A stretch of 64,000 nucleotides of DNA, taken from contig JAFXZE010000008.1 of the NCBI GenBank assembly GCA_017541375.1, positions 6,207 to 70,206 of the forward strand. Direction: 5' to 3'. The translations under genes were made by a program, and so were the position numbers. The stretch's first letter is position 1; each line of letters starts with the position of its first letter. The stretch comes from Clostridia bacterium (GTDB taxonomy: Bacteria; Bacillota; Clostridia; Christensenellales; UBA1242). The notes below the pieces were generated by a model. The model did no database searches and was not told where the DNA came from. It saw nothing but the letters and a program-made list of their open reading frames with translations. Shown here one piece after another: positions 49,938-59,301 of the stretch.

Positions 49938-50024
49938 GGAGAGGTGTCAGAGTGGTCGAATGTGCCGGCCTCGAAATTCGGTATGCCAAAAGCATCGAGG
50001 GTTCGAATCCCTCCCTCTCCGCCA
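49938..50024 (+). tRNA. tRNA-Ser (anticodon CGA), class II with long variable arm, encoded CCA
   Basis: Hand fold: acceptor GGAGAGG/CCTCTCC, T-arm GAGGG-TTCGAAT-CCCTC, variable arm ATGC-CAAAA-GCAT, anticodon loop CTCGAAA. One mismatch each in the D stem and anticodon stem. Confidence 0.8.
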
Positions 50025-50059
50025 GTAGAAACCAATTTGAACCGCAGGGTTCTTTTTTT
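50019..50059 (+). repeat. Left copy of a perfect 41-bp direct repeat (last 6 nt of tRNA-Ser plus its terminator)
   Basis: CCGCCAGTAGAAACCAATTTGAACCGCAGGGTTCTTTTTTT, identical to 59217-59257. Confidence 0.95.
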
Positions 50060-50138
50060 AGTTTTTGCGATAACTAAGAGATTTTTAGGCAAAATTATAG
50101 TTAATTTGTCTTATTATCATTTTAATAAGTTAAGTTTG

Positions 50139-50167
50139 TTGACAAAAAAATAATTATATGTTATCCT
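50139..50167 (+). promoter_or_regulatory. Candidate promoter of the peptide/radical-SAM operon
   Basis: TTGACA-17 nt-TATCCT (consensus -35, weak -10). Confidence 0.45.
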
Positions 50168-50191: not shown

Positions 50192-50251
50192 ATGGCGAAA
50201 AGAATTACTTTAAAGAAAATGACGATTTACACAAGTTGCATGTCAACCTAA
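50192..50251 (+). CDS. 19-aa candidate RiPP precursor peptide MAKRITLKKMTIYTSCMST, absent from the ORF track
   Basis: GAAGGAGG RBS 9 nt upstream of the ATG. Basic N-terminal half and a Thr/Ser/Cys/Tyr-rich C-terminal half. Directly upstream of two radical-SAM genes. Confidence 0.6.
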   Translation: MAKRITLKKMTIYTSCMST

Positions 50252-50263
50252 TTTAAGCCACAG

Positions 50264-50297
50264 CTAAATTCATCATTTGATGAGTTTAGTTTTTTTT
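50264..50297 (+). terminator. Strong intrinsic terminator/attenuator between the peptide gene and the maturase genes
   Basis: 11-bp stem CTAAATTCATC/GATGAGTTTAG (one G-U pair), 4-nt loop, then 8 T. The RBS of the next gene starts right after the T-run. Confidence 0.8.
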
Positions 50298-50307
50298 AGG
50301 AGATGTT

Positions 50308-51213
50308 ATGGTTTTATTTTTTATTATTCACACAAAATGTGATTTATGCTGTAAAGATTGCTTTTATTCAAAAGGATATGAAAAAAGGGATTCTAGCGAA
50401 TTAAAGCTAGAAGATATAGAATTATTTGTTAAAAAAGTTTACGACTTAAGTTTTAAAACAATTATTCTGACTGGAGGAGATCCTCTTTATTCAAAGCGTA
50501 AATATGTTACCTATGCATTAATCGAATGTTTAAAAAAATACAAGTTAAGAGTTATAATTAATACTAGTGGCGCAAAATTGAATTCTATCGATATACAAAC
50601 TTTAATCAACTTAAATGTTGATAGAATAGATTTTTCGATTAATTCACTTGATGAAAATATTCATAATTCTGAACGAGGAAATTATCAAGACACTGTTTTT
50701 GCGATGAAAAGTCTTTTGAAAAATGGGTATGATAAAATCACTACTACTACAGTTATAACAGAAGAAAATGCGTATAAAGCACTGGAAACACTTCGATGGT
50801 TAAAATCTTTAGGTATAAAAGACATAAGATATCAACCTTTATTTAAACAAACAGCCCAAAATTATCAAATAATAAGAGATGCAATGTTGGAATGTAATAA
50901 AGAATTTGGTAATTCGCATTCAGAGTATTATTTATTACAGTGCGATAGAGCATATAATAACAAAATTCCTCAAGAGAATTCAGTATGTATGATGGGGAAA
51001 AATTTATTTGTAAGTGATGCATTAGGGAATATTTATCCTTGTTTTCATCGATTCGATGTAAATTTTGGAAATATCTTTACAGATGATACTTCATTTTTAA
51101 AGGACAAATTAATACATAATAGTTTTTATTCAGAAAGGCATGATTGTTTTGGTAAACATTGTGTTTCATTGTTCGATAACGGTGATTTTTGGAAAAAGGA
51201 AAAAGTTTTATGA
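50308..51213 (+). CDS. Radical SAM enzyme with C-terminal twitch/partial-SPASM-like Cys cluster
   Basis: CDLCCKDC (CX3CX2C) at residues 11-18, GGDPL, C-terminal CMMGKNLFVSDALGNIYPC...CFGKHC. Confidence 0.85.
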   Translation: MVLFFIIHTKCDLCCKDCFYSKGYEKRDSSELKLEDIELFVKKVYDLSFKTIILTGGDPLYSKRKYVTYALIECLKKYKLRVIINTSGAKLNSIDIQTLINLNVDRIDFSINSLDENIHNSERGNYQDTVFAMKSLLKNGYDKITTTTVITEENAYKALETLRWLKSLGIKDIRYQPLFKQTAQNYQIIRDAMLECNKEFGNSHSEYYLLQCDRAYNNKIPQENSVCMMGKNLFVSDALGNIYPCFHRFDVNFGNIFTDDTSFLKDKLIHNSFYSERHDCFGKHCVSLFDNGDFWKKEKVL

Positions 51214-52487
51214 AAAAGTACGTATACCCCTACAAGATATTTACAAATGAAAAAGTAATGTATCATTTTAATGTGGATAAGTTGTATATAACAGAAGTTA
51301 ATAATAATCATTTAGACTTATTGAATAAACTTGCTCAATTTGATTACGAAGAAGTGCAAGCTAACATTTTAGATGAGGAGCAAAAACAGTGTCTGAACGA
51401 TTTGATTGAATTTGAAATGATAACTGATGAGCAACCTAATATAAAAGAGCCAACTGTAGTTTGTAAACCTACTTCCTATCGTATAGTTTTAACGGAACAA
51501 TGTAACTTAGCCTGTGTTGAGTGTTTCGCAACAAAAAATATTAATTGTTTGAAAACTATGGATAGCGAAACACTGTTTGAGGTGCTTGAATATTCGTTTA
51601 AGAATAATAACAATAAATCTACACAGTATTGTTTTTTTGGTGGGGAACCTTTAATAAAGTTTGATTTAATAAAAGAAGCTGTTGCTAAAATTGAAGAAGC
51701 AGAAAAGAATCATTTAGTAAAGAATCCAGTTTTATTGATTACAACAAATGGAACGATATTAAATGATGAAATAATTGATTTTTTTATTGATCATAATGTA
51801 AGAGTAGGCGTGTCTATTGATGGTCCTAAAGAAATACACGACAAATTGCGACCATATAAGGATTTACGTGGGACTTTTGATGATGTAAAAGAAAACTATA
51901 TGAAAATGTATAATAAAGGAGTTAATCTACATGTTTTAATTACTCCTAATCCTGATTTTTTGGGTAATCTAAAAGATATTGTAAAGTATGTGCTTGAAAA
52001 TTTTCCAATGAAAGAATTGACAATTAATACCCCCTTTAAATACGATACTTTGCAATGGTCCGTTGATGGAGAAAAATATGCTCATATATTATTTGATATT
52101 TATAAATTAACCCAAGAATTTGGCGTTATCCTCGATTCTGCATTGTCGGTAGTGTTGGGGAGTATATCAAATGGCATTAGAAGACAAACTCCGTGTTCTA
52201 TTTTAGGAGATGAATTTATGACTTTGGTTACTCCTCATGGGGAAATGTCAAGATGTGCACAAAAATATGATTCCCAAATTTCTTTGGGAAACATCAAAAA
52301 CGTGAGTGTATCGGATAATTGTAAGAATTGTTATGCATACGGTTTTTGTGGTGGAGTATGCCCTGCATATAAGGTTTTGTCTGGTATGTCTACTGATTCA
52401 AACAAGTGTAAATTTATGCATGCTATATTACCTAATTTAATAAATTATTTAAAAATGTTTGAGGAGACATCTGATGATCTTCAGTAA
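51210..52487 (+). CDS. Radical SAM/SPASM peptide maturase with ~95-aa N-terminal (RRE-position) extension
   Basis: CNLACVEC (CX3CX2C), GGEPL. Complete SPASM signature CSILGDEFMTLVTPHGEMSRC...CKNCYAYGFCGGVC (CX2CX5CX3C). ATGA start/stop overlap with the upstream gene; an alternative start exists at 51189. Confidence 0.85.
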   Translation: MKKYVYPYKIFTNEKVMYHFNVDKLYITEVNNNHLDLLNKLAQFDYEEVQANILDEEQKQCLNDLIEFEMITDEQPNIKEPTVVCKPTSYRIVLTEQCNLACVECFATKNINCLKTMDSETLFEVLEYSFKNNNNKSTQYCFFGGEPLIKFDLIKEAVAKIEEAEKNHLVKNPVLLITTNGTILNDEIIDFFIDHNVRVGVSIDGPKEIHDKLRPYKDLRGTFDDVKENYMKMYNKGVNLHVLITPNPDFLGNLKDIVKYVLENFPMKELTINTPFKYDTLQWSVDGEKYAHILFDIYKLTQEFGVILDSALSVVLGSISNGIRRQTPCSILGDEFMTLVTPHGEMSRCAQKYDSQISLGNIKNVSVSDNCKNCYAYGFCGGVCPAYKVLSGMSTDSNKCKFMHAILPNLINYLKMFEETSDDLQ

Positions 52488-53637
52488 AGATATGTTTTTT
52501 ACAACCAAGTTTATTGATAGTGATCCCATATATGTAAAATTAGAAAAAGCAGGGTATATTAAACAAATAAGCTCTGGTATATATGCTTACTTAGAGCTTT
52601 TTAATAAATTATTAAGTAATATCTGTAATGAGATAGGTAACATATTTAAAGAATACAACATTAGTGAAGTTAAAATGCCTCTGTTACAGGATGCTAATTT
52701 ATGGAAAAACTCTGGGCGATTTGACATTTATGGTAAAGGTTTGTTTGTTACGGGGGAAAATGCTGAATATGTTTTGAGTGCAACAAGCGAAGAGGCGATT
52801 ATTAAATTGATAGATCTATTAGGGATTGAAGAGAAGCAATTACCATTTTGTGTATATCAGATTTCAGAAAGGTTAAGGAATGAATTACGTACTGCTTATG
52901 GTTTATTTCGAACAAAAACTTTCACACTAGCAGATTGTTATGCGATTGTCAATAATACAAATGATTTGGCACATTATACCCATATATTTAAAGAAATTTT
53001 TCACAAAATAGGTGTAAAATTTAATTTGGCACTGCATGAGGCTATTCACTTGGGACACAACCAGACCATTTCCATTTGGTGTAATTCAAAACTAAATCAA
53101 AGCCACCCCATAGTATGCAAAAATTGCAATAATTCATTTCGTAATAAATCTTTAATTACTAAATGTCCTATATGTAATTCTGCTAATGTAGCACGAGCCG
53201 TGGGGGCTGAAATTGGTGATATAGCAACAATACAGCAACTAATTAGTACAAAAAAAATTAATAATACTCATATTGTTACAATGGGAATTGGGTTAACTAG
53301 GCTTATTCAATTAATTGCAGAGCAAAAAGTATATAAAAATGGCTTTGATTGGGATTATTGGTATGCTCCATACAAAGCATATATTGTGGCTAGTAATGAA
53401 AGGAGAAACGAGGCACAAAAAATATATGACATACTAAATAGTAAGATAGATGCTCTTTTCGATAATAGAGCAAAAAGTATAGCCACGAAACTAATAGATG
53501 CTGATTTGATCGGTTGCCCATATAAAATCATATTAGGTAATAATACATGTATCGATACGGTCGAAATAAAAAGAAGTAATAAAATGTTAAAACTAAAAAG
53601 TGAGCAAGTTTTAAAATATATATTAGATAATAGATAG
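52474..53637 (+). CDS. Minimal bacterial-type ProRS-like class II aaRS paralogue: no INS editing domain, CxxC...CxxC insert, degenerate motifs
   Basis: AGYIKQISSGIYAYLELF, MPLLQDANLWKNSGRF and LRNELRTAYGLFRTKTFTLADCYA align with the motif 2 region ([25 protein letters not shown]). MGIGLTRLIQLIAEQ is motif 3. An HGTP-type anticodon-binding domain follows (YKAYIV...LFDNRAKS...DADLIGCPYKIILG). The 14-nt overlap with the upstream gene has a GAGGAG RBS. Confidence 0.75.
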   Translation: MIFSKDMFFTTKFIDSDPIYVKLEKAGYIKQISSGIYAYLELFNKLLSNICNEIGNIFKEYNISEVKMPLLQDANLWKNSGRFDIYGKGLFVTGENAEYVLSATSEEAIIKLIDLLGIEEKQLPFCVYQISERLRNELRTAYGLFRTKTFTLADCYAIVNNTNDLAHYTHIFKEIFHKIGVKFNLALHEAIHLGHNQTISIWCNSKLNQSHPIVCKNCNNSFRNKSLITKCPICNSANVARAVGAEIGDIATIQQLISTKKINNTHIVTMGIGLTRLIQLIAEQKVYKNGFDWDYWYAPYKAYIVASNERRNEAQKIYDILNSKIDALFDNRAKSIATKLIDADLIGCPYKIILGNNTCIDTVEIKRSNKMLKLKSEQVLKYILDNR

Positions 53638-53664: not shown

Positions 53665-55092
53665 ATGAATAAACAAAGAGAATTAGTAAAAAAAGATAAC
53701 ATGGCAGAGTGGTATCAAAATGTTATAGAAAAGGCTGATTTAGCCGAACATTCACCAGTAAAAGGCTGCATGACCATAAAACCTTATGGTTATGCTATTT
53801 GGGAATTAATAAGAAATGAATTAGATATTTTAATAAAAAAACATGGGGCAAAGAATATGAGTTTTCCTCTTTTTATTCCTTATTCATATTTGTCAAGAGA
53901 GAAGGATCATGTTGAAGGATTTAGTCCTGAAATTGCTGTGGTTACACACGCTGGTGGTAAAAAATTACAAGAACCTTTGGTCGTTCGACCAACGTCCGAG
54001 ACGATCATTCATGAAAGTATGAGGAGATGGATTTATTCATATAAAGATTTGCCCCTAAAGTTGAATCAGTGGTGTAATGTTGTGCGTTGGGAAAAGCATC
54101 CTCGTTTATTTTTAAGAACTTCCGAATTTCAATGGCAGGAAGGGCATACTGCACATGCAACGGAACAAGAAGCACGACAAGAAGTGGAAAGTATGGTTGA
54201 ACTTTACTACAATTTTATTAAAGATGTTTTAGCTATTCCTACAGTAAAGGGACAGAAATCAGAAAAGGAAAAATTTGCAGGAGCGGTTGATTCATATAGT
54301 GTAGAGGCACTTATGCCAGATAATAAAGCTGTTCAAATGGGAACAATTCATTACTTAGGTTTGAATTTTTCAAAAATAGCAGATGTGAAATTTGTAGATG
54401 AAAGTGGTGCTGAAAACTTTGTATATATGACAAGCTGGGGAGTTTCAACAAGGCTCATAGGGGCATTGATAATGACTCATGGTGATGATAAAGGATTAGT
54501 TCTTCCACCGAAAGTAGCACCAGTTCAAATTGTTATTGTACCTATTGGTAATACTTTAGAAACAGCGCAACGCTTATTTAATGAATTAAACAATAGTGGT
54601 TTTAGAGTGGAGTTAGATGATCGTCAAGATGTGCGACCAGGAGCTAAATATTTTGAAAATGAAATGAGAGGTATTCCTGTCAGAATAGAAATAGGTGAAA
54701 GGGAAATTGAGAATAATGAAATACAGTGTGTAAATAGAGTTACAGGAAAGAGGACGGTATTATCACTTGGTTCAGATTATATACAATCTATAAAAGATTT
54801 ATTACAAGAAATTCAATCTACACTTTTAAAAAATGCAACAGAAAGAATGAGAAATAGCGTGGTAGAAGCGAAAACAAAAGAAGAATTTTCCGATTTGATA
54901 GAAAACCAAAAGGGTTTTATAAAAGCTTGTTGGTGTGATGAAAAAGAATGTGAAGTAAGCATTAAAGATAAAACTGGAGCAAATAGCAGAAATTTACCGT
55001 TTGCCGAAAACGAAAAAGAATTGACTGATTGTACTTGTGTTTGGTGTGGTAAAAAGGCTAAGAAAATTGCATATTTTTGTAAAGCTTATTAA
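53665..55092 (+). CDS. proS: Prolyl-tRNA synthetase, archaeal/eukaryote-like type (full length, with C-terminal Zn-binding domain)
   Basis: EWYQNVIEKADLAEHSPVKGCMTIKPYGYAIWE, RPTSETII, FLRTSEFQWQEGHTAH, SWGVSTRLIGALIMTHGDDKGLVLPP. C-terminal CWCDEKEC...CVWCGKKAK...KAY ends in the conserved terminal Tyr. Confidence 0.9.
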   Translation: MNKQRELVKKDNMAEWYQNVIEKADLAEHSPVKGCMTIKPYGYAIWELIRNELDILIKKHGAKNMSFPLFIPYSYLSREKDHVEGFSPEIAVVTHAGGKKLQEPLVVRPTSETIIHESMRRWIYSYKDLPLKLNQWCNVVRWEKHPRLFLRTSEFQWQEGHTAHATEQEARQEVESMVELYYNFIKDVLAIPTVKGQKSEKEKFAGAVDSYSVEALMPDNKAVQMGTIHYLGLNFSKIADVKFVDESGAENFVYMTSWGVSTRLIGALIMTHGDDKGLVLPPKVAPVQIVIVPIGNTLETAQRLFNELNNSGFRVELDDRQDVRPGAKYFENEMRGIPVRIEIGEREIENNEIQCVNRVTGKRTVLSLGSDYIQSIKDLLQEIQSTLLKNATERMRNSVVEAKTKEEFSDLIENQKGFIKACWCDEKECEVSIKDKTGANSRNLPFAENEKELTDCTCVWCGKKAKKIAYFCKAY

Positions 55093-55110: not shown

Positions 55111-56214
55111 ATGAAGCCATATAGTCTAAATAAAAATGATAAGATAGCAATAATTTCTCTATCGGGTGGAAGTTTAGGAGAAGCATACAATAAGCCAATA
55201 GTTGAATTGGGTATAAAGAGATTAAAAGATTTGGGTTTTGTCACTGTTTTTACACCCAATAGCCTAAAGGGTATAGATTTTTTACATAACAATCCAAAGG
55301 CACGAGCCGAAGATTTAAAGGCGGCTTTTAGGGATGATAGCATTAAAGCAATTCTATGTGCAATTGGTGGGGATGATACAATACTAACGATTCCATATCT
55401 ATTAAGTGATAGTGAATTTATTTTAAATGTAAAAAAGCATCCGAAAGTTTTTTTCGGATACTCGGATTCAACAATAAATCATTTAATGTTTTGTAAGTTA
55501 GGATTACAAACATACTATGGAATAAGTTTTATAACAGATTTTTGCGAATTAGCGCCCAATATGATTCCTTATACTTTAAATAGTTTTGTAAATTTTTGTA
55601 ATAATCCAAAAGCCTTTTCCATTACGCCAAGTAAGTATTGGTATAGGGAAAGAGATGATTATTCAATCAAGAATTTAGGATTTGAAAGAATTGCTGTTGA
55701 AGAGGAGCGAGGATACATCTTTTTTAATAGTATGAAAAAAGTAAAAGGTGAATTATTTGGTGGTTGCATAGAAATCTTATCTGCTTGTTTGGGAATAATA
55801 GACAAAGATTGGTTTTATCATAAAGAAATTGTAGATATTTTTTATAAGATTGCCGATAAATTTAAGCTTTTTCCGACAAAGGATTATTTGAAAGGCAAAA
55901 TTCTATTTCTAGAATCAAGTGAGGTGTTTATTAAACCTGAAAAATTGAAACAATTTCTATTGAAACTTGAAGAATTGGGAATACTAGCAGTTTTGAATGG
56001 TATTATCGTATCAAAACCTATGGAAGAAAAATATTTTGATGAGTATTTATCTGTTTATAAAGATGTATGCTCAAAATATAGTTTTCCTGTAATATATAAT
56101 TTTAATTTGGGGCATTCATGTCCGAGAAATATATTGCCATATGGTGTTAAATGTGAAATTGATCCTGTAAACAAGACGATTAGAATAGTCGAAAAAATGA
56201 CTTGTGACAATTGA
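55111..56214 (+). CDS. Peptidase S66 (LD-carboxypeptidase / MccF-like serine hydrolase), long 367-aa form
   Basis: IAIISLSGGS, nucleophile elbow GYSDST, C-terminal NLGHSCPRNILPYG (catalytic His region). The length fits the MccF-like rather than the short LdcA-like subgroup. Confidence 0.8.
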   Translation: MKPYSLNKNDKIAIISLSGGSLGEAYNKPIVELGIKRLKDLGFVTVFTPNSLKGIDFLHNNPKARAEDLKAAFRDDSIKAILCAIGGDDTILTIPYLLSDSEFILNVKKHPKVFFGYSDSTINHLMFCKLGLQTYYGISFITDFCELAPNMIPYTLNSFVNFCNNPKAFSITPSKYWYRERDDYSIKNLGFERIAVEEERGYIFFNSMKKVKGELFGGCIEILSACLGIIDKDWFYHKEIVDIFYKIADKFKLFPTKDYLKGKILFLESSEVFIKPEKLKQFLLKLEELGILAVLNGIIVSKPMEEKYFDEYLSVYKDVCSKYSFPVIYNFNLGHSCPRNILPYGVKCEIDPVNKTIRIVEKMTCDN

Positions 56215-56259: not shown

Positions 56260-56281
56260 AGGAGCTTCGGCTCTTTTTTTG
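56260..56281 (+). terminator. Intrinsic terminator ending the operon
   Basis: AGGAGC-TTCG-GCTCTTTTTTT (short stem, UUCG loop). Confidence 0.6.
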
Positions 56282-56470
56282 TTATTTATGATAAAGACAC
56301 TTACTTAGCACCTATACCCACAAACAAAAGCAAATATATAAGGAGATAGGATATAAACTTTTTGTAAATTAATTTTTAATTAGAAATTTTGTCGTCTATA
56401 AACTGGGGTTTAGTTGCTAAAAATTTCTGTTTATGCTATATTAAGAGAAAACAAAAAAGCGAGGTAAAAA

Positions 56471-58843
56471 ATGAACAAAGAAAACGGTGTGCTAAGTGGA
56501 CCGATTACAAAAGAGGAAATAGAGTTACTCATTTCCAATCCAAAGAAGTTTTGGGAAGGAGTAACCAAGATTGATAAGAGGACTTTTAAGGGCTGTATCT
56601 CTCTAAAGGACATAACTATTCCCGATAGTATAACAAGTATTGGTGACGGAGCATTTGATGACTGTGACAGACTAGAAAGTATTACTATTCCTGAGAGTGT
56701 AACAAGTATTGGTAAGTCGGCCTTTTATGGATGTAAAAATCTCAATAGCATCAACATTCCCGATAGTATAACAAGTATTGGTGAAGATGCTTTTTCGGGT
56801 TGTGAAAGTCTAGAGAGAATTACTATTCCTGATAGTGTAACAAGTATCGGCGATGGTGCTTTTTTTGGTTGTGAAAGACTAGAAAGTATTACTATTCCTG
56901 AAAGTGTAACGAGCATTGATGATTATACTTTTCTGAACTGTAAACAACTCAATAGTATCATCATTCCTAATAGTGTAACCAATATTGGATACAAAGCGTT
57001 CGTTGGGTGTACGAGTTTAACTAGTGTAACAATCCCAAATAGTGTAACAAGTATTGGAGCAATGGCTTTCAGTAGCTGTAGTGGATTAACCAGTGTAACA
57101 ATACCCAATAGTGTGACAAGTATTGAATACCTGGCTTTCTGTAGGTGTACTAGCTTAACCAGTGTAACAATACCTAATAGTGTAAAAAGTCTTGGAAGTA
57201 GGGCATTCGAGATGTGTACTGATTTAACCCGTATTACTATGCTGATGGGAATTAGTTGTGGCTCTGATTCTGTTGAGTGGGATAAGTTTAAATTTATACA
57301 ATTTCATGAAGATGGAAAAAACTTAAGCCTACTAAGCTCTCCACCGAAAAATGCTACAAATTGCATCGCTGCATCTCCAGACACCATGTTTAAGTGTGTC
57401 ACAAGTAGAAATTATGGAAAAAATACCATTAAACAGCAAAAGTTAAATCAAGAATTGGAAAAGCAGGGGCGCAAACCACTAAAATTGCCTGATTTTATGC
57501 TAGATACTTTTCCGCACGAGCAATTTAACAATATCTTTTACAACAATAATATCACTAGATGGCGAAATTTAGTGAAAACTCTTGAATTTGATAAATTACC
57601 AGATACCAAAAAAAATAATAGCCTAACCGATTTGTTGAAAATATATTATGCCATAGGTGGTTTTTCCGAGGTTCAAAGCGATAGTATAAGTGCATATAAC
57701 TATATTCTAGAGCACGTTGTGTCGAAAGAAGCTACATCTAGCGCAAACGGAGATTTTATTCACAAAGCGTTTTCAAAAGTGCAACTTGAAGGGCCGTATA
57801 ATAAAGATTTTGCTAAATTTTTTATGATGTATTATGATGACCCAGACTTCAAGCGGTTTAATCTCAAAGATGAAGATGATATGTTTATCGATTCGAAGAG
57901 CTTTTGTTGGGAGGCAGCCCACAACTCGTTTGGAAGAATTCAAAAAGATTTCCCAGGTAAGGTTGTAAGTGGCACAACTGGCAGGGAGGATTTATTGGAT
58001 CCACCATTTGTGATGAAGCATAGTATAATAGTTCAATATGAGAATGTTGAGCCAGGGAATGAATCGTTAGCTGAGTTAGTGGGGCGGTATGGCTATACGC
58101 AAAGTCAGTTTGAGTATATTCAGACCATCTACAACTATGCCAAAGCGCACAAAGATGAATATGTTATCATGGCTGACAAAGCAAATGAAGATGATCCAGT
58201 GAAATTTAGAGCGTTAGCAAAAGATGATCCTCTTGGTTTTGTATTGGGTGATATCACTAATTGTTGCCAACACATTGGGGGAATGGCACAAAGCTGTGTG
58301 GACGATGGATACAAAAATCCTAATGCAGGTTTTATAGTATTTGAAGAAAGTATACTAGATGATAATGGATTAGACACAGGAGAAAAGCGAGTGTTAGCAC
58401 AAGCCTACGTGTGGTATGACCCAGATACCAAGACAGTTTGCTATGACAATATTGAAATACCGGATAAGATTTTGGCAAAATTGCGCAAGGGAGATAAGCA
58501 TGGCAGCCTGATATCGGCAAAATCTTTGATTAGTGCAGTGGAAAAATCTGCTGAGTCAATAATACTTGCGATGAACAGAAAAGGAATTGAGGTAGAGCGA
58601 GTAACCACAGGAGAAGGGTATAATGACTTGAAGAAAGAATTGCAATCAAACTTTCCTCGAGAAAGTCCACCAAAATCGAAGGGCCCTAAAGGTGTATATA
58701 CAGATGCAAAAACAGCCCAATATATACTTTCTACATATGACAAAGTGACCAAGAAATATGGCGGTATAGTAAAGGATGCTCTAAAAGAGGCGACAAAAGG
58801 CCTAAGTGAAATAAAAACAGCCACTCAAGGCCGACAAGCATAA
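56471..58843 (+). CDS. BspA-type (LRR_5) leucine-rich-repeat protein without signal peptide, ~500-aa uncharacterised C-terminal domain
   Basis: About 8 repeats of ITIP(D/E/N)SVTSIG..AF.GC..L.S. The N-terminus MNKENGVLSGPITKEEIELL is hydrophilic. No motif recognised in the C-terminal region (..GDITNCCQHIGGMAQSCVDDGYKNPNAGFIVFEE..). Confidence 0.8.
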   Translation: MNKENGVLSGPITKEEIELLISNPKKFWEGVTKIDKRTFKGCISLKDITIPDSITSIGDGAFDDCDRLESITIPESVTSIGKSAFYGCKNLNSINIPDSITSIGEDAFSGCESLERITIPDSVTSIGDGAFFGCERLESITIPESVTSIDDYTFLNCKQLNSIIIPNSVTNIGYKAFVGCTSLTSVTIPNSVTSIGAMAFSSCSGLTSVTIPNSVTSIEYLAFCRCTSLTSVTIPNSVKSLGSRAFEMCTDLTRITMLMGISCGSDSVEWDKFKFIQFHEDGKNLSLLSSPPKNATNCIAASPDTMFKCVTSRNYGKNTIKQQKLNQELEKQGRKPLKLPDFMLDTFPHEQFNNIFYNNNITRWRNLVKTLEFDKLPDTKKNNSLTDLLKIYYAIGGFSEVQSDSISAYNYILEHVVSKEATSSANGDFIHKAFSKVQLEGPYNKDFAKFFMMYYDDPDFKRFNLKDEDDMFIDSKSFCWEAAHNSFGRIQKDFPGKVVSGTTGREDLLDPPFVMKHSIIVQYENVEPGNESLAELVGRYGYTQSQFEYIQTIYNYAKAHKDEYVIMADKANEDDPVKFRALAKDDPLGFVLGDITNCCQHIGGMAQSCVDDGYKNPNAGFIVFEESILDDNGLDTGEKRVLAQAYVWYDPDTKTVCYDNIEIPDKILAKLRKGDKHGSLISAKSLISAVEKSAESIILAMNRKGIEVERVTTGEGYNDLKKELQSNFPRESPPKSKGPKGVYTDAKTAQYILSTYDKVTKKYGGIVKDALKEATKGLSEIKTATQGRQA

Positions 58844-59106: not shown

Positions 59107-59216
59107 AAAATGTAGTACGTTTTTTTATGTTTTAGGTGGAAGGAAATAATATGAGTAATTTTGATAATTTGGCTTAAATACCAAAGAAAGTCGGTTCTTA
59201 TTATACACCTCTTGCG

Positions 59217-59257
59217 CCGCCAGTAGAAACCAATTTGAACCGCAGGGTTCTTTTTTT
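59217..59257 (+). repeat. Right copy of the perfect 41-bp direct repeat (tRNA-Ser 3' end plus terminator)
   Basis: Identical to 50019-50059. Also acts as a terminator hairpin GAACC-GCAG-GGTTC followed by T7. Confidence 0.95.
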
Positions 59258-59301
59258 GATGTTTAAGTTTTAAATAGAGTTGTAAAATTTTTTGTTTTTG
59301 G

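Follow-up and report, generated by a model that had tools for sequence, protein, structure and literature searches.

A rare clade of remodelled bacterial-type prolyl-tRNA synthetase paralogues encoded in a radical SAM cassette beside a complete prolyl-tRNA synthetase

The window analyzed here is a stretch of 64,000 nucleotides from a Clostridia bacterium (GenBank assembly GCA_017541375.1, contig JAFXZE010000008.1, positions 6,207 to 70,206), and coordinates refer to this window unless stated otherwise. It contains an operon whose fourth cistron encodes a diverged, shortened paralogue of bacterial-type prolyl-tRNA synthetase (ProRS). The paralogue follows a short peptide open reading frame (ORF) and two genes for radical S-adenosylmethionine (SAM) enzymes, here called rSAM1 and rSAM2, and is itself followed by a complete ProRS and an S66 peptidase. 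The features of the paralogue gene are as follows.

52474-53637 (+): ProRS paralogue without the INS editing domain, 387 amino acids (aa), assigned from the ORF, Pfam, NCBIfam, alignment to PDB entries, an AlphaFold2 model and a tree
52876-52923 (+): motif 2, RNELRTAYGLFRTKTF, with invariant R135, E137, R139, R146 and F150
53116-53175 (+): CxxC-N12-CxxC zinc knuckle, CKNCNNSFRNKSLITKCPIC, with the family-invariant R223, from translation and the family alignment
53209-53301 (+): EIGD (in place of EVGH) through the motif 3 sequence GIGLTR, with invariant E246, D249, G271, G273 and R276
53359-53634 (+): HGTP-type anticodon-binding domain (Pfam, E = 5e-9), also evident from family conservation

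The ORF begins with an ATG codon, carries a GAGGAG element 7 nt upstream of it and overlaps the stop of the preceding radical SAM gene by 14 nt. Its product has a letter-for-letter match in a public protein collection, where it occurs on 15 contigs. The strings quoted for this protein in an earlier note on the same DNA (CKNCNNSFRNKSLITKCPIC, RNELRTAYGLFRTKTF and EIGDIATIQ...MGIGLTR) were recovered by translation at the positions listed above.

Pfam recognizes a class II core (tRNA-synt_2b) and an HGTP_anticodon domain. The top NCBIfam models are the equivalogs for bacterial ProRS, NF006625 and TIGR00409, with both cut-offs missed (201.7 bits against 558, and 180.5 bits against 306.7 for TIGR00409). 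In the alignment to PDB entries, residues 23-209 of the paralogue match residues 26-218 of Enterococcus faecalis ProRS and residues 269-379 match 440-557. Since the alignment jumps from 209 to 269 on one side and from 218 to 440 on the other, the INS editing domain is missing: about 59 residues stand in place of the ~220 that contain INS in the E. faecalis enzyme. An AlphaFold2 model built on the family alignment (pLDDT 87, pTM 0.88) is closest to the E. faecalis and Rhodopseudomonas palustris ProRS structures at a TM of about 0.85. The best structural matches are the E. faecalis, S. aureus, P. aeruginosa and R. palustris enzymes, followed by archaeal-type ProRS, ThrRS and GlyRS. Database names of family members are either "hypothetical protein" or "proline--tRNA ligase". 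The earlier note had described a stripped-down, diverged bacterial-type ProRS paralogue that lacks INS, and had proposed structure prediction and phylogeny as checks. NCBIfam, the PDB alignment, the structural model and the tree described below, in which the paralogues form one clade within bacterial-type ProRS, all agree with this description and speak against membership in another aminoacyl-tRNA synthetase (aaRS) family.

The same note took the CxxC motif pair for a replacement of INS with a spacer of 13 residues. The motif is present (C215, C218, C231 and C234); its spacer counts 12 residues, and the idea of a replacement did not survive comparison. When 20 family members were aligned with 133 canonical bacterial ProRS, all four cysteines were found in 48 of the 79 canonical enzymes with INS and in 26 of the 49 without it, about 60% overall. 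In long ProRS the first Cys pair precedes INS and the second follows it, e.g., CNECGY...(INS)...CAHCKSG...ELGHIF, and canonical minimal ProRS that combine the knuckle with normal motifs also exist (P0024-P0026). Because the cysteines occur in INS-bearing and INS-less enzymes, the knuckle is, judged by this distribution, an element ancestral to bacterial ProRS at the base of the INS insertion point and no substitute for the domain. Mean pairwise identity in the knuckle region is 0.34 in the paralogue family compared to 0.26 in canonical ProRS, and Q209 and R223 are family-invariant residues around it.

The paralogue family is rare and monophyletic. HMMER, run in full against 1.84 billion representative proteins, returned a group of 378-410-aa proteins at 155-600 bits, with ordinary ProRS forming a background of at most 150 bits; the family signature was present in 14 of the 150 best matches, the window protein counted. 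Two further candidates (P0005 and P0009, 27% identity, 410-419 aa) were rejected, as they are encoded beside rseP, frr and nusA and represent ordinary minimal ProRS. In a maximum-likelihood tree rooted with archaeal-type enzymes, the family forms one clade (SH-aLRT 100) on a stem of 1.21 substitutions per site, nested inside bacterial-type ProRS.

To map residues onto solved ProRS structures, motifs were aligned to the E. faecalis and Mycobacterium tuberculosis enzymes, and column statistics compared the 20 family members with canonical bacterial ProRS. Twelve residues have been named as Pro-AMP contacts in M. tuberculosis ProRS (PMC13629369), and nine of these are conserved in the family. T104, E106, R135, E137, F150, E246, G273 and R276 are kept in 90-100% of the members, as are R146 and G271, while G248 is kept in 70% with Ala in the rest. 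Retained are thus the TxE amine clamp (T104, E106) and, in motif 2, R135 and E137 together with the loop arginine R146. F150 and R276, which stack on adenine, E246, which serves the ribose and the metal, and the glycines of motif 3 are kept as well.

Other positions have changed, and the changes are systematic across the whole family. Motif 2 contains the family-specific switches D136N, R141A and E149(S/T). On the metal and proline side the switches are uniform: His is replaced by D249 (100%), the Glu of SxEF by S200 (95%) and Met by L152. Expressed as motifs, RDE becomes RNE, RPR becomes RPA, REF becomes x(S/T)F, MKD becomes LAD, AYSF becomes xYAL, GED becomes KQC and EVGH becomes E(I/V)GD. 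The Phe of HIF and the MGCY sequence are lost, and the Gly-rich proline-binding loop is unconserved, varying in length and sequence. Among the canonical bacterial ProRS in the comparison, conservation at the switched positions amounts to 81-97%. These column statistics indicate that the adenylate chemistry and the amine clamp are under strong purifying selection and that the closed hydrophobic proline pocket has been dismantled. The observation in the earlier note that normally invariant positions are changed therefore extends to the family. The alteration of motif 2 given in that note is milder than it suggests, as the catalytic Arg/Glu, the loop Arg and the adenine-stacking Phe are kept.

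This pattern bears on the idea that the paralogue has no catalytic role and is a decoy, a sensor or a regulator with the product, tRNAPro or the partner ProRS as its ligand, e.g., in a heterodimer or by sequestering an inhibitor. The paralogue does accompany a full ProRS, and regulatory class II aaRS paralogues exist, such as HisZ or the PolG2 accessory subunit with its aaRS-like fold. However, R135, E137, R146, F150, E246, D249, G271, G273 and R276 are invariant across phyla, as expected of an active enzyme, and a heterodimer of paralogue and ProRS is unlikely because the partners differ in ProRS architecture. We regard a non-catalytic role as highly improbable.

The closest relatives in architecture are the INS-less minimal ProRS (R. 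palustris ProRS, 2i4l, and the 413-422-aa proteins P0024-P0026). The paralogue shares with them the fold (TM 0.78-0.82 to 2i4l and 2i4n), the domain order, the lack of an editing domain, the ATP ligands of motifs 2 and 3, the anticodon-binding domain and, for many of them, the CxxC...CxxC motif. Minimal ProRS keep RDE..RPR..REF.MKDAYSF, SxEF, EVGHIF and MGCYGIG, whereas the paralogue family replaces these uniformly. The minimal enzymes are encoded in ordinary translation-gene neighbourhoods and the paralogue in a radical SAM cassette.

Two elements of the paralogue point toward tRNA. In Escherichia coli ProRS, R144 is the first Arg of the RPR sequence and lies next to G72; its loss lowers tRNAPro charging more than 1000-fold and affects activation little (PMC11229370). 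The counterpart in the paralogue, R139, is invariant in the family. The second element is the anticodon-binding domain, in which the ProRS consensus residues D330, R332, G337, D342-A-D-L, G347 and P349 are kept. Mean pairwise identity in this domain is 0.37 within the family, 0.34 among true ProRS and 0.29 between the two groups, compared to 0.40, 0.52 and 0.29, respectively, for the catalytic part around EVGH and motif 3. The anticodon-binding domain is tied for least diverged from true ProRS and shows the smallest fall below the identity among true ProRS, whereas the EVGH/motif 3 part shows the largest drop. Within the family, the domain is conserved like the catalytic core. Retention of R139 and of the anticodon-binding domain suggests that the paralogue uses tRNA.

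A class II core reused outside translation, with degenerate specificity residues, is also found in EpmA/PoxA, HisZ, AsnA and the amino-acid:carrier-protein ligases. These proteins derive from LysRS, HisRS, AsnRS/AspRS or SerRS, are tRNA-independent and have lost the anticodon-binding domain. In contrast, the paralogue family derives from ProRS and keeps both the domain and the acceptor-stem Arg. The analogy to these proteins drawn in the earlier note is thus not borne out.

Around the paralogue, the operon and its surroundings comprise the following features.

50010-50066 (+) and 59208-59264: left and right copies of a 57-nt direct repeat
50139-50167 (+): promoter-like site TTGACA-17-TG-TATCCT, a consensus match only
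50192-50251 (+): 19-codon precursor-type ORF, MAKRITLKKMTIYTSCMST, preceded by a GGAGG ribosome-binding site
50262-50299 (+): 13-bp hairpin with a T-run, an attenuator-type terminator directly 3' of the peptide gene
50308-51213 (+): rSAM1, 301 aa, with a Cys-rich SPASM-like C-terminus (Pfam Radical_SAM and Fer4_12)
51210-52487 (+): rSAM2, a radical SAM/SPASM enzyme of peptide-maturase type with an N-terminal extension of ~95 aa (Pfam, NCBIfam)
53665-55092 (+): complete archaeal-type ProRS of the cassette lineage (TIGR00408, 557.7 bits, cut-off 437)
55111-56214 (+): S66 peptidase of the MccF-like branch (Pfam, PDB matches)
56260-56283 (+): terminator-like hairpin closing the operon

The short conserved precursor beside a radical SAM/SPASM maturase with an N-terminal peptide-binding extension corresponds to features of sacti- and ranthipeptide-like radical SAM/SPASM clusters for peptides that are ribosomally made and modified after translation (RiPPs). 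The NCBIfam matches of rSAM2 (PapB, nif11, CcpM and QhpD-like) are all under cut-off, and no NCBIfam model reaches its cut-off for the paralogue, rSAM1 or rSAM2. As no specific maturase model is reached, the radical SAM RiPP subclass is undefined. An identity of the operon as a defence system was rejected: PADLOC gave no match for the paralogue and just a generic similarity of the radical SAM core of rSAM2 to viperins. A search of the cassettes for a dedicated tRNA gene found none; nearby tRNA genes are limited to the tRNA-Ser here and an unrelated tRNA-Ala at locus L012. The genome of the window has three ordinary tRNAPro genes.

The order rSAM1-rSAM2-paralogue is conserved in Clostridia, Bdellovibrionales, Moraniibacteriota and Uhrbacteria (two phyla of the candidate phyla radiation, CPR), Acidobacteriota and Kribbella alba. 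Gut-metagenome contigs with the same gene order encode paralogues 64-69% identical to the one in the window, and identity is 25-35% for the metagenome-assembled genomes (MAGs) of Bdellovibrionales, the two CPR phyla, an Acidobacteriota MAG and K. alba. The cassette was found in 13 further metagenome loci. An orthologue of rSAM1 occurs in at least 15 loci, and rSAM2 lies directly 5' of the paralogue even in the distant locus L003, whose paralogue is 33% identical. A variant cassette (L038, L040 and L047) has a GFO/IDH/MocA-type oxidoreductase and another, different radical SAM/SPASM enzyme in place of the radical SAM pair, and still keeps the pair of ProRS and paralogue.

Homologous small ORFs occupy the peptide position in 14 other loci, and a hairpin equivalent to the one in the window follows the peptide gene in L001. 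The precursors are 18-36 aa long, with a basic N-terminal half that often contains (K)ARRI.L and a C-terminus of the form [TSA][SP][CG]xSx, e.g., YTSCMST, RSSCHST, RTSCQSG, HTSCLSG, RASCQSA, RSPGRSK and RTPGRSD. The last residue varies (T, G, K, D or A).

In variant cassettes (L038, L039, L040, L042 and L047) the gene order is ProRS, paralogue, GFO/IDH/MocA-type oxidoreductase and the different radical SAM/SPASM enzyme. The archaeal-type ProRS of variant cassettes carries an N-terminal extension of ~60 aa, and no precursor peptide was detected in the intergenic gaps searched.

The paralogue is absent from 40 of 40 relatives of the same genus, family or order. The two copies of the direct repeat are 88% identical with 41 nt exact, and the left copy overlaps the 3' end of a tRNA-Ser(CGA) gene and its terminator. 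Together they bound a 9.2-kb AT-rich segment that contains the operon and a BspA-type leucine-rich-repeat protein. No integrase was seen inside this segment, which looks like an integrase-less island or a remnant of one. Because the 40 relatives lack the paralogue and the segment is bounded by repeats at a tRNA gene, the cassette appears to be horizontally mobile. In the gene for the BspA-type protein (56471-58843), a 207-nt repeat occurs in four 69-nt-spaced copies (56562-56975).

As recognized in the earlier note, two distinct ProRS lineages stand side by side in the window, since the downstream gene is of archaeal type and carries a ProRS-C_1 domain. A complete ProRS adjoins the paralogue in 17 of 19 informative non-redundant loci, the variant cassette included, mostly downstream and sometimes upstream or divergent. 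Conservation of this pairing across phyla argues that it is functional rather than accidental. An archaeal-type partner is not obligatory, as the paralogue of L048 is paired with a bacterial-type minimal ProRS; the rule is therefore a complete ProRS, not an archaeal-type one. In the Moraniibacteriota MAG (L013, 6510-7912), the cassette ProRS lies in two frames of ~274 and ~257 aa, reflecting a frameshift or pseudogene or else an assembly error.

The cassette ProRS of the window shares 82% identity with further Clostridia cassette copies and 57% with those of Bdellovibrionales, compared to 48-51% with most ProRS of the same genus. In a tree that included 12 housekeeping ProRS from one order, that of the window, the cassette ProRS of Clostridia, Bdellovibrionales and Acidobacteriota form a clade (99/97) apart from the housekeeping enzymes. 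On the strength of this grouping and the low same-genus identity, we rejected the possibility that the cassette ProRS is the housekeeping gene of the host. Among nine carrier genomes, a separate bacterial-type ProRS is encoded elsewhere in seven, and an archaeal-type ProRS was found in eight, the cassette copy being the only one in each. The motif 2 loop reads HPRLF in all 14 cassette-lineage ProRS (54100-54108 in the window, ProRS residues 146-148) and xTRPF in the 12 housekeeping enzymes; S87, V174 and V241 are also common to the 14. Corresponding loop positions matter for acceptor-stem recognition in Bacillus thuringiensis ProRS2 (PMC11229370). The HPRLF loop may be a resistance or specificity determinant, a suggestion we offer as a lead only.

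Other ProRS genes in the genus complete this picture. Most genomes of the genus have an archaeal-type ProRS only. The genome of the window (G000) carries a relic of such an enzyme (contig C7:240113-240483, outside the window) in which residues ~10-35 are fused to the C-terminal ~107 residues with the zinc-binding domain, the catalytic and anticodon-binding parts being deleted. The relic is 51-57% identical to the ProRS of the same-genus genome G014 and to cassette-type ProRS, and a gene located ~5 kb away is a neighbour of ProRS in G014. The native ProRS seems to have decayed after the arrival of other copies. A third ProRS-family gene of the same genome (contig C7:392064-393317, outside the window) encodes a 417-aa INS-less bacterial-type ProRS with canonical RDE, REFVMKDAYSF, ELGHIF and GCYGIG and without the zinc knuckle; it is located among GNAT acetyltransferase genes, not translation genes. 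In G014 and G017 (loci L029 and L030), the paralogue and the radical SAM genes are missing and the only ProRS is of the cassette lineage, 72% identical to the window copy. It could be an orphan resistance-type gene left after loss of the cassette, or represent the donor lineage.

The presence of a complete ProRS also bears on whether the paralogue is itself a genuine second ProRS, minimal and either inhibitor-insensitive or stress-specialized, whose remodelled pocket would exclude a toxic proline or adenylate analogue. Elements for both half-reactions are present (ATP site, TxE, R139 and the anticodon-binding domain), canonical INS-less ProRS with the same zinc knuckle exist, and resistance copies of aaRS are common in antibiotic clusters (PMC11229370, PMC12945691). 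Nevertheless, residues kept in 81-97% of canonical ProRS are uniformly replaced, including His to Asp, Glu to Ser and the loss of MGCY, the proline-binding loop is unconserved, the stem branch is long and the scores are far under the ProRS cut-offs. Moreover, with a complete ProRS present in the cassette anyway, a second resistance copy would be superfluous at almost all loci. We therefore consider this explanation distinctly unlikely. Instead, the remodelled pocket, the conserved cassette and the co-travelling ProRS make it probable that the paralogue is a neofunctionalized biosynthetic enzyme of a ProRS-centred secondary-metabolite cassette.

The hydrolases of the cassette bear on what such a metabolite may be. 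The S66 peptidase of the window matches the MccF-like structure 4e94 with 299 bits, E. coli MccF with 63 bits and LdcA, a murein LD-carboxypeptidase, with 35 bits. An S66 peptidase also follows ProRS in Bdellovibrionales loci, and S51 peptidases flank the cassette in L003, L011-13, L037, L043, L044, L048 and L049. MccG (S51; PMC9239234) and MccH (HIT; PMC7157772) confer immunity to microcin-C-type peptidyl-nucleotides, and MccF (S66), MccG and MccH represent precisely the three families shown to be protective by cleaving the aminoacyl-nucleotide warhead (PMC9239234, PMC7157772). The link of the cassette hydrolases to this type of immunity is an association, not proof; it agrees with two other features, the additional ProRS and the paralogue's intact adenylate pocket. 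In L048 (3005-10962), a HIT-domain hydrolase, an HD phosphohydrolase and three S51 peptidases surround the cassette, a dense concentration of hydrolases of the nucleotide and aminoacyl-nucleotide type.

The same peptidases could serve a scaffold-peptide pathway resembling those of the peptide aminoacyl-tRNA ligases (PEARLs), which would lead to a small proline-related metabolite or cofactor rather than an antibiotic. The paralogue would add an amino acid from aminoacyl-tRNA at the C-terminus of the peptide, the radical SAM enzymes would modify it, and the S66 or S51 carboxypeptidase would release the product and recycle the peptide. Radical SAM/SPASM enzymes build pyrroloquinoline quinone (PQQ) and mycofactocin out of peptide C-termini, which gives a precedent. 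The short peptide with its conserved C-terminus beside carboxypeptidase-type S66/S51 enzymes, the retained tRNA handles and the lack of an exporter in the cassette fit as well. The variable last residue of the precursors (T, G, K, D or A) would be unusual for a recycled scaffold, though, and the extra ProRS lineage together with MccF-like, MccG-like and HIT-type hydrolases points to the management of toxicity. The distribution is also sporadic and the segment mobile, whereas a cofactor pathway would be expected to be lineage-wide. A pathway of this kind is, in our view, rather unlikely.

Microcin C itself offers another comparison. Both systems have a short ribosomal peptide modified, here by prediction, at its C-terminus, an adenylate-forming enzyme (putative here), hydrolases of the MccF (S66), MccG (S51) and MccH (HIT) types in or next to the cluster, and a presumed aaRS target. 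They differ in that the present cassettes have two radical SAM enzymes, a gene of the resistant-target aaRS type and peptides of 18-36 aa without an Asn end, and in the presumed target, ProRS here and AspRS for microcin C. A ThiF/E1-like MccB domain was found in none of the cassette proteins scanned.

The paralogue could then take the place of MccB as a tRNA-independent adenylyltransferase. It would transfer AMP onto the C-terminal carboxylate of the radical SAM-modified peptide, for example of a ring formed from the invariant Ser-X end, with the anticodon-binding domain serving folding or dimer stability only. The ATP site is fully conserved, the opened proline lid would give a peptide chain a way out of the amino-acid pocket, the cassette has no other ATP-using enzyme and immunity hydrolases of microcin C type flank the paralogue. 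On the other hand, R139 is invariant although its E. coli counterpart serves tRNA charging and not activation, ProRS-specific consensus is kept in the anticodon-binding domain, an acyl-adenylate would be labile and the neighbouring complete ProRS would be accounted for only as a resistance gene. Overall, we regard such an adenylyltransferase as unlikely.

The closest analogues are found in the biosynthesis of nucleoside antibiotics, and here the likeness is one of logic only, with no homology implied. In the ascamycin cluster of Streptomyces sp. 80H647, AcmF is a truncated AlaRS-like protein in a clade of its own that moves Ala from Ala-tRNA to adenosine sulfamate, AcmD is an extra complete AlaRS that provides Ala-tRNA and shows lower sensitivity to the product ascamycin, and the alanyl group is removed by the hydrolase AcmE (PMC12945691). 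SbzA has a similar double role for an IleRS inhibitor in the SB-203208 cluster (PMC12945691). The paralogue resembles these proteins as a truncated aaRS-like protein without an editing domain that forms its own clade and has kept catalytic and tRNA-recognition parts. As with AcmF and AcmD, its gene lies next to one for an additional, complete aaRS specific for the same amino acid, and the cluster includes a hydrolase; there, the extra aaRS provides both aminoacyl-tRNA and self-resistance, and the product mimics an aminoacyl-adenylate and is directed against that aaRS. In contrast, AcmF and SbzA derive from AlaRS (class II, another subclass) and IleRS (class I) and the present paralogue from bacterial-type ProRS, and their acceptors are nucleoside sulfamates or altemicidin, where the cassette has a ribosomal peptide and two radical SAM enzymes. 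AcmF has also lost most ATP-site residues, which the paralogue family retains fully. As the anticodon-binding domain and the acceptor-stem Arg are both retained in the family, AcmF/AcmD and SbzA are better analogues than the tRNA-independent proteins discussed above.

Based on the ascamycin-like trio of an aaRS-like enzyme without an editing domain, an extra aaRS and hydrolases, we propose that the paralogue is a neofunctionalized biosynthetic ligase that uses ATP and tRNAPro toward a Trojan-horse compound directed at ProRS, with the neighbouring ProRS as an insensitive spare. This specific proposal is tentative, and we hold it at somewhat short of an even chance. The radical SAM/SPASM enzymes would tailor the conserved ...[ST][SP][CG]xSx end of the small basic peptide. 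The paralogue would bind an adenine nucleotide and tRNAPro, or Pro-tRNAPro from the neighbouring ProRS, and couple a prolyl or adenylyl unit to the modified C-terminal region of the peptide. This would yield a mimic of prolyl-adenylate that is carried by the peptide and acts as a Trojan-horse inhibitor of ProRS. The co-transferred ProRS would be the insensitive replacement of the producer and possibly its supplier of Pro-tRNA, and flanking S66, S51 or HIT hydrolases would detoxify the processed warhead. Use of tRNA, the acceptor substrate, the nature of the product and the resistance role are all suggested by sequence conservation and gene neighbourhood.

Several points weigh against this proposal. 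None of the loci showed a gene for a transporter or exporter, an unusual lack in an antibiotic cluster. The cassette has no nucleoside-modifying or ThiF-like enzyme, leaving a stable, non-anhydride adenylate mimic unexplained. The precursor peptides end in neither Pro nor Asn, and the peptide cores of Acidobacteriota and Kribbella are devoid of Cys, so that the radical SAM chemistry is ambiguous. S51 and S66 peptidases are common and have other roles, e.g., as LD-carboxypeptidase, dipeptidase E or in leader removal, and the anticodon-binding domain may be kept for structure instead of function. The analogy to AcmF is incomplete because AcmF lost the ATP-site residues that the paralogue family keeps. 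Finally, a spare resistant copy is not cleanly demonstrated here, since the genome of the window has a third ProRS and the relic of a native one.

If the ligase proposal is true, the paralogues would constitute a new family of enzymes, ligases derived from ProRS that combine intact adenylate and tRNA handles with a new substrate, and would probably define a new class of ribosomal-peptide natural products against the essential and clinically pursued ProRS. ProRS is the target of halofuginone-type and of newer antibacterial and antimalarial leads. The combination of an aaRS-like enzyme and a resistant aaRS, so far a logic of actinomycete nucleoside antibiotics, would extend to RiPPs and to uncultured small-genome bacteria, including CPR and gut Clostridia. 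Should the peptide-linked chemistry be confirmed, the paralogue would be, to our knowledge, the first aaRS-fold RiPP tailoring enzyme. A full-text search of the literature found no description of a ProRS paralogue in a RiPP or radical SAM context or of self-resistance clusters with ProRS. It is a more doubtful idea that a class II aaRS fold has become a RiPP tailoring enzyme and that the product is the first natural peptide-carried ProRS inhibitor, a radical SAM counterpart of microcin C. We are equally doubtful about the accompanying scenario, in which horizontal transfer carried this inhibitor system between gut Clostridia, CPR, Bdellovibrionales, Acidobacteriota and actinomycetes, each time along with an insensitive ProRS of its own. 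Even if the inhibitor idea is wrong, a remodelled ProRS, a complete ProRS and two radical SAM enzymes kept together across phyla form a functional module that is still unexplained.

For genome mining, the paralogue motifs RNExRPA and E(I/V)GD beside a full ProRS provide a signature. The ligase hypothesis is directly testable because one carrier, Kribbella alba JCM 14306 (WP_344116644.1), is cultured. At its locus (L017, 5641-6786), no peptidase is encoded 3' of the paralogue; this position is occupied by a DUF455 ferritin-like di-iron protein, and the ProRS gene is located upstream in divergent orientation.

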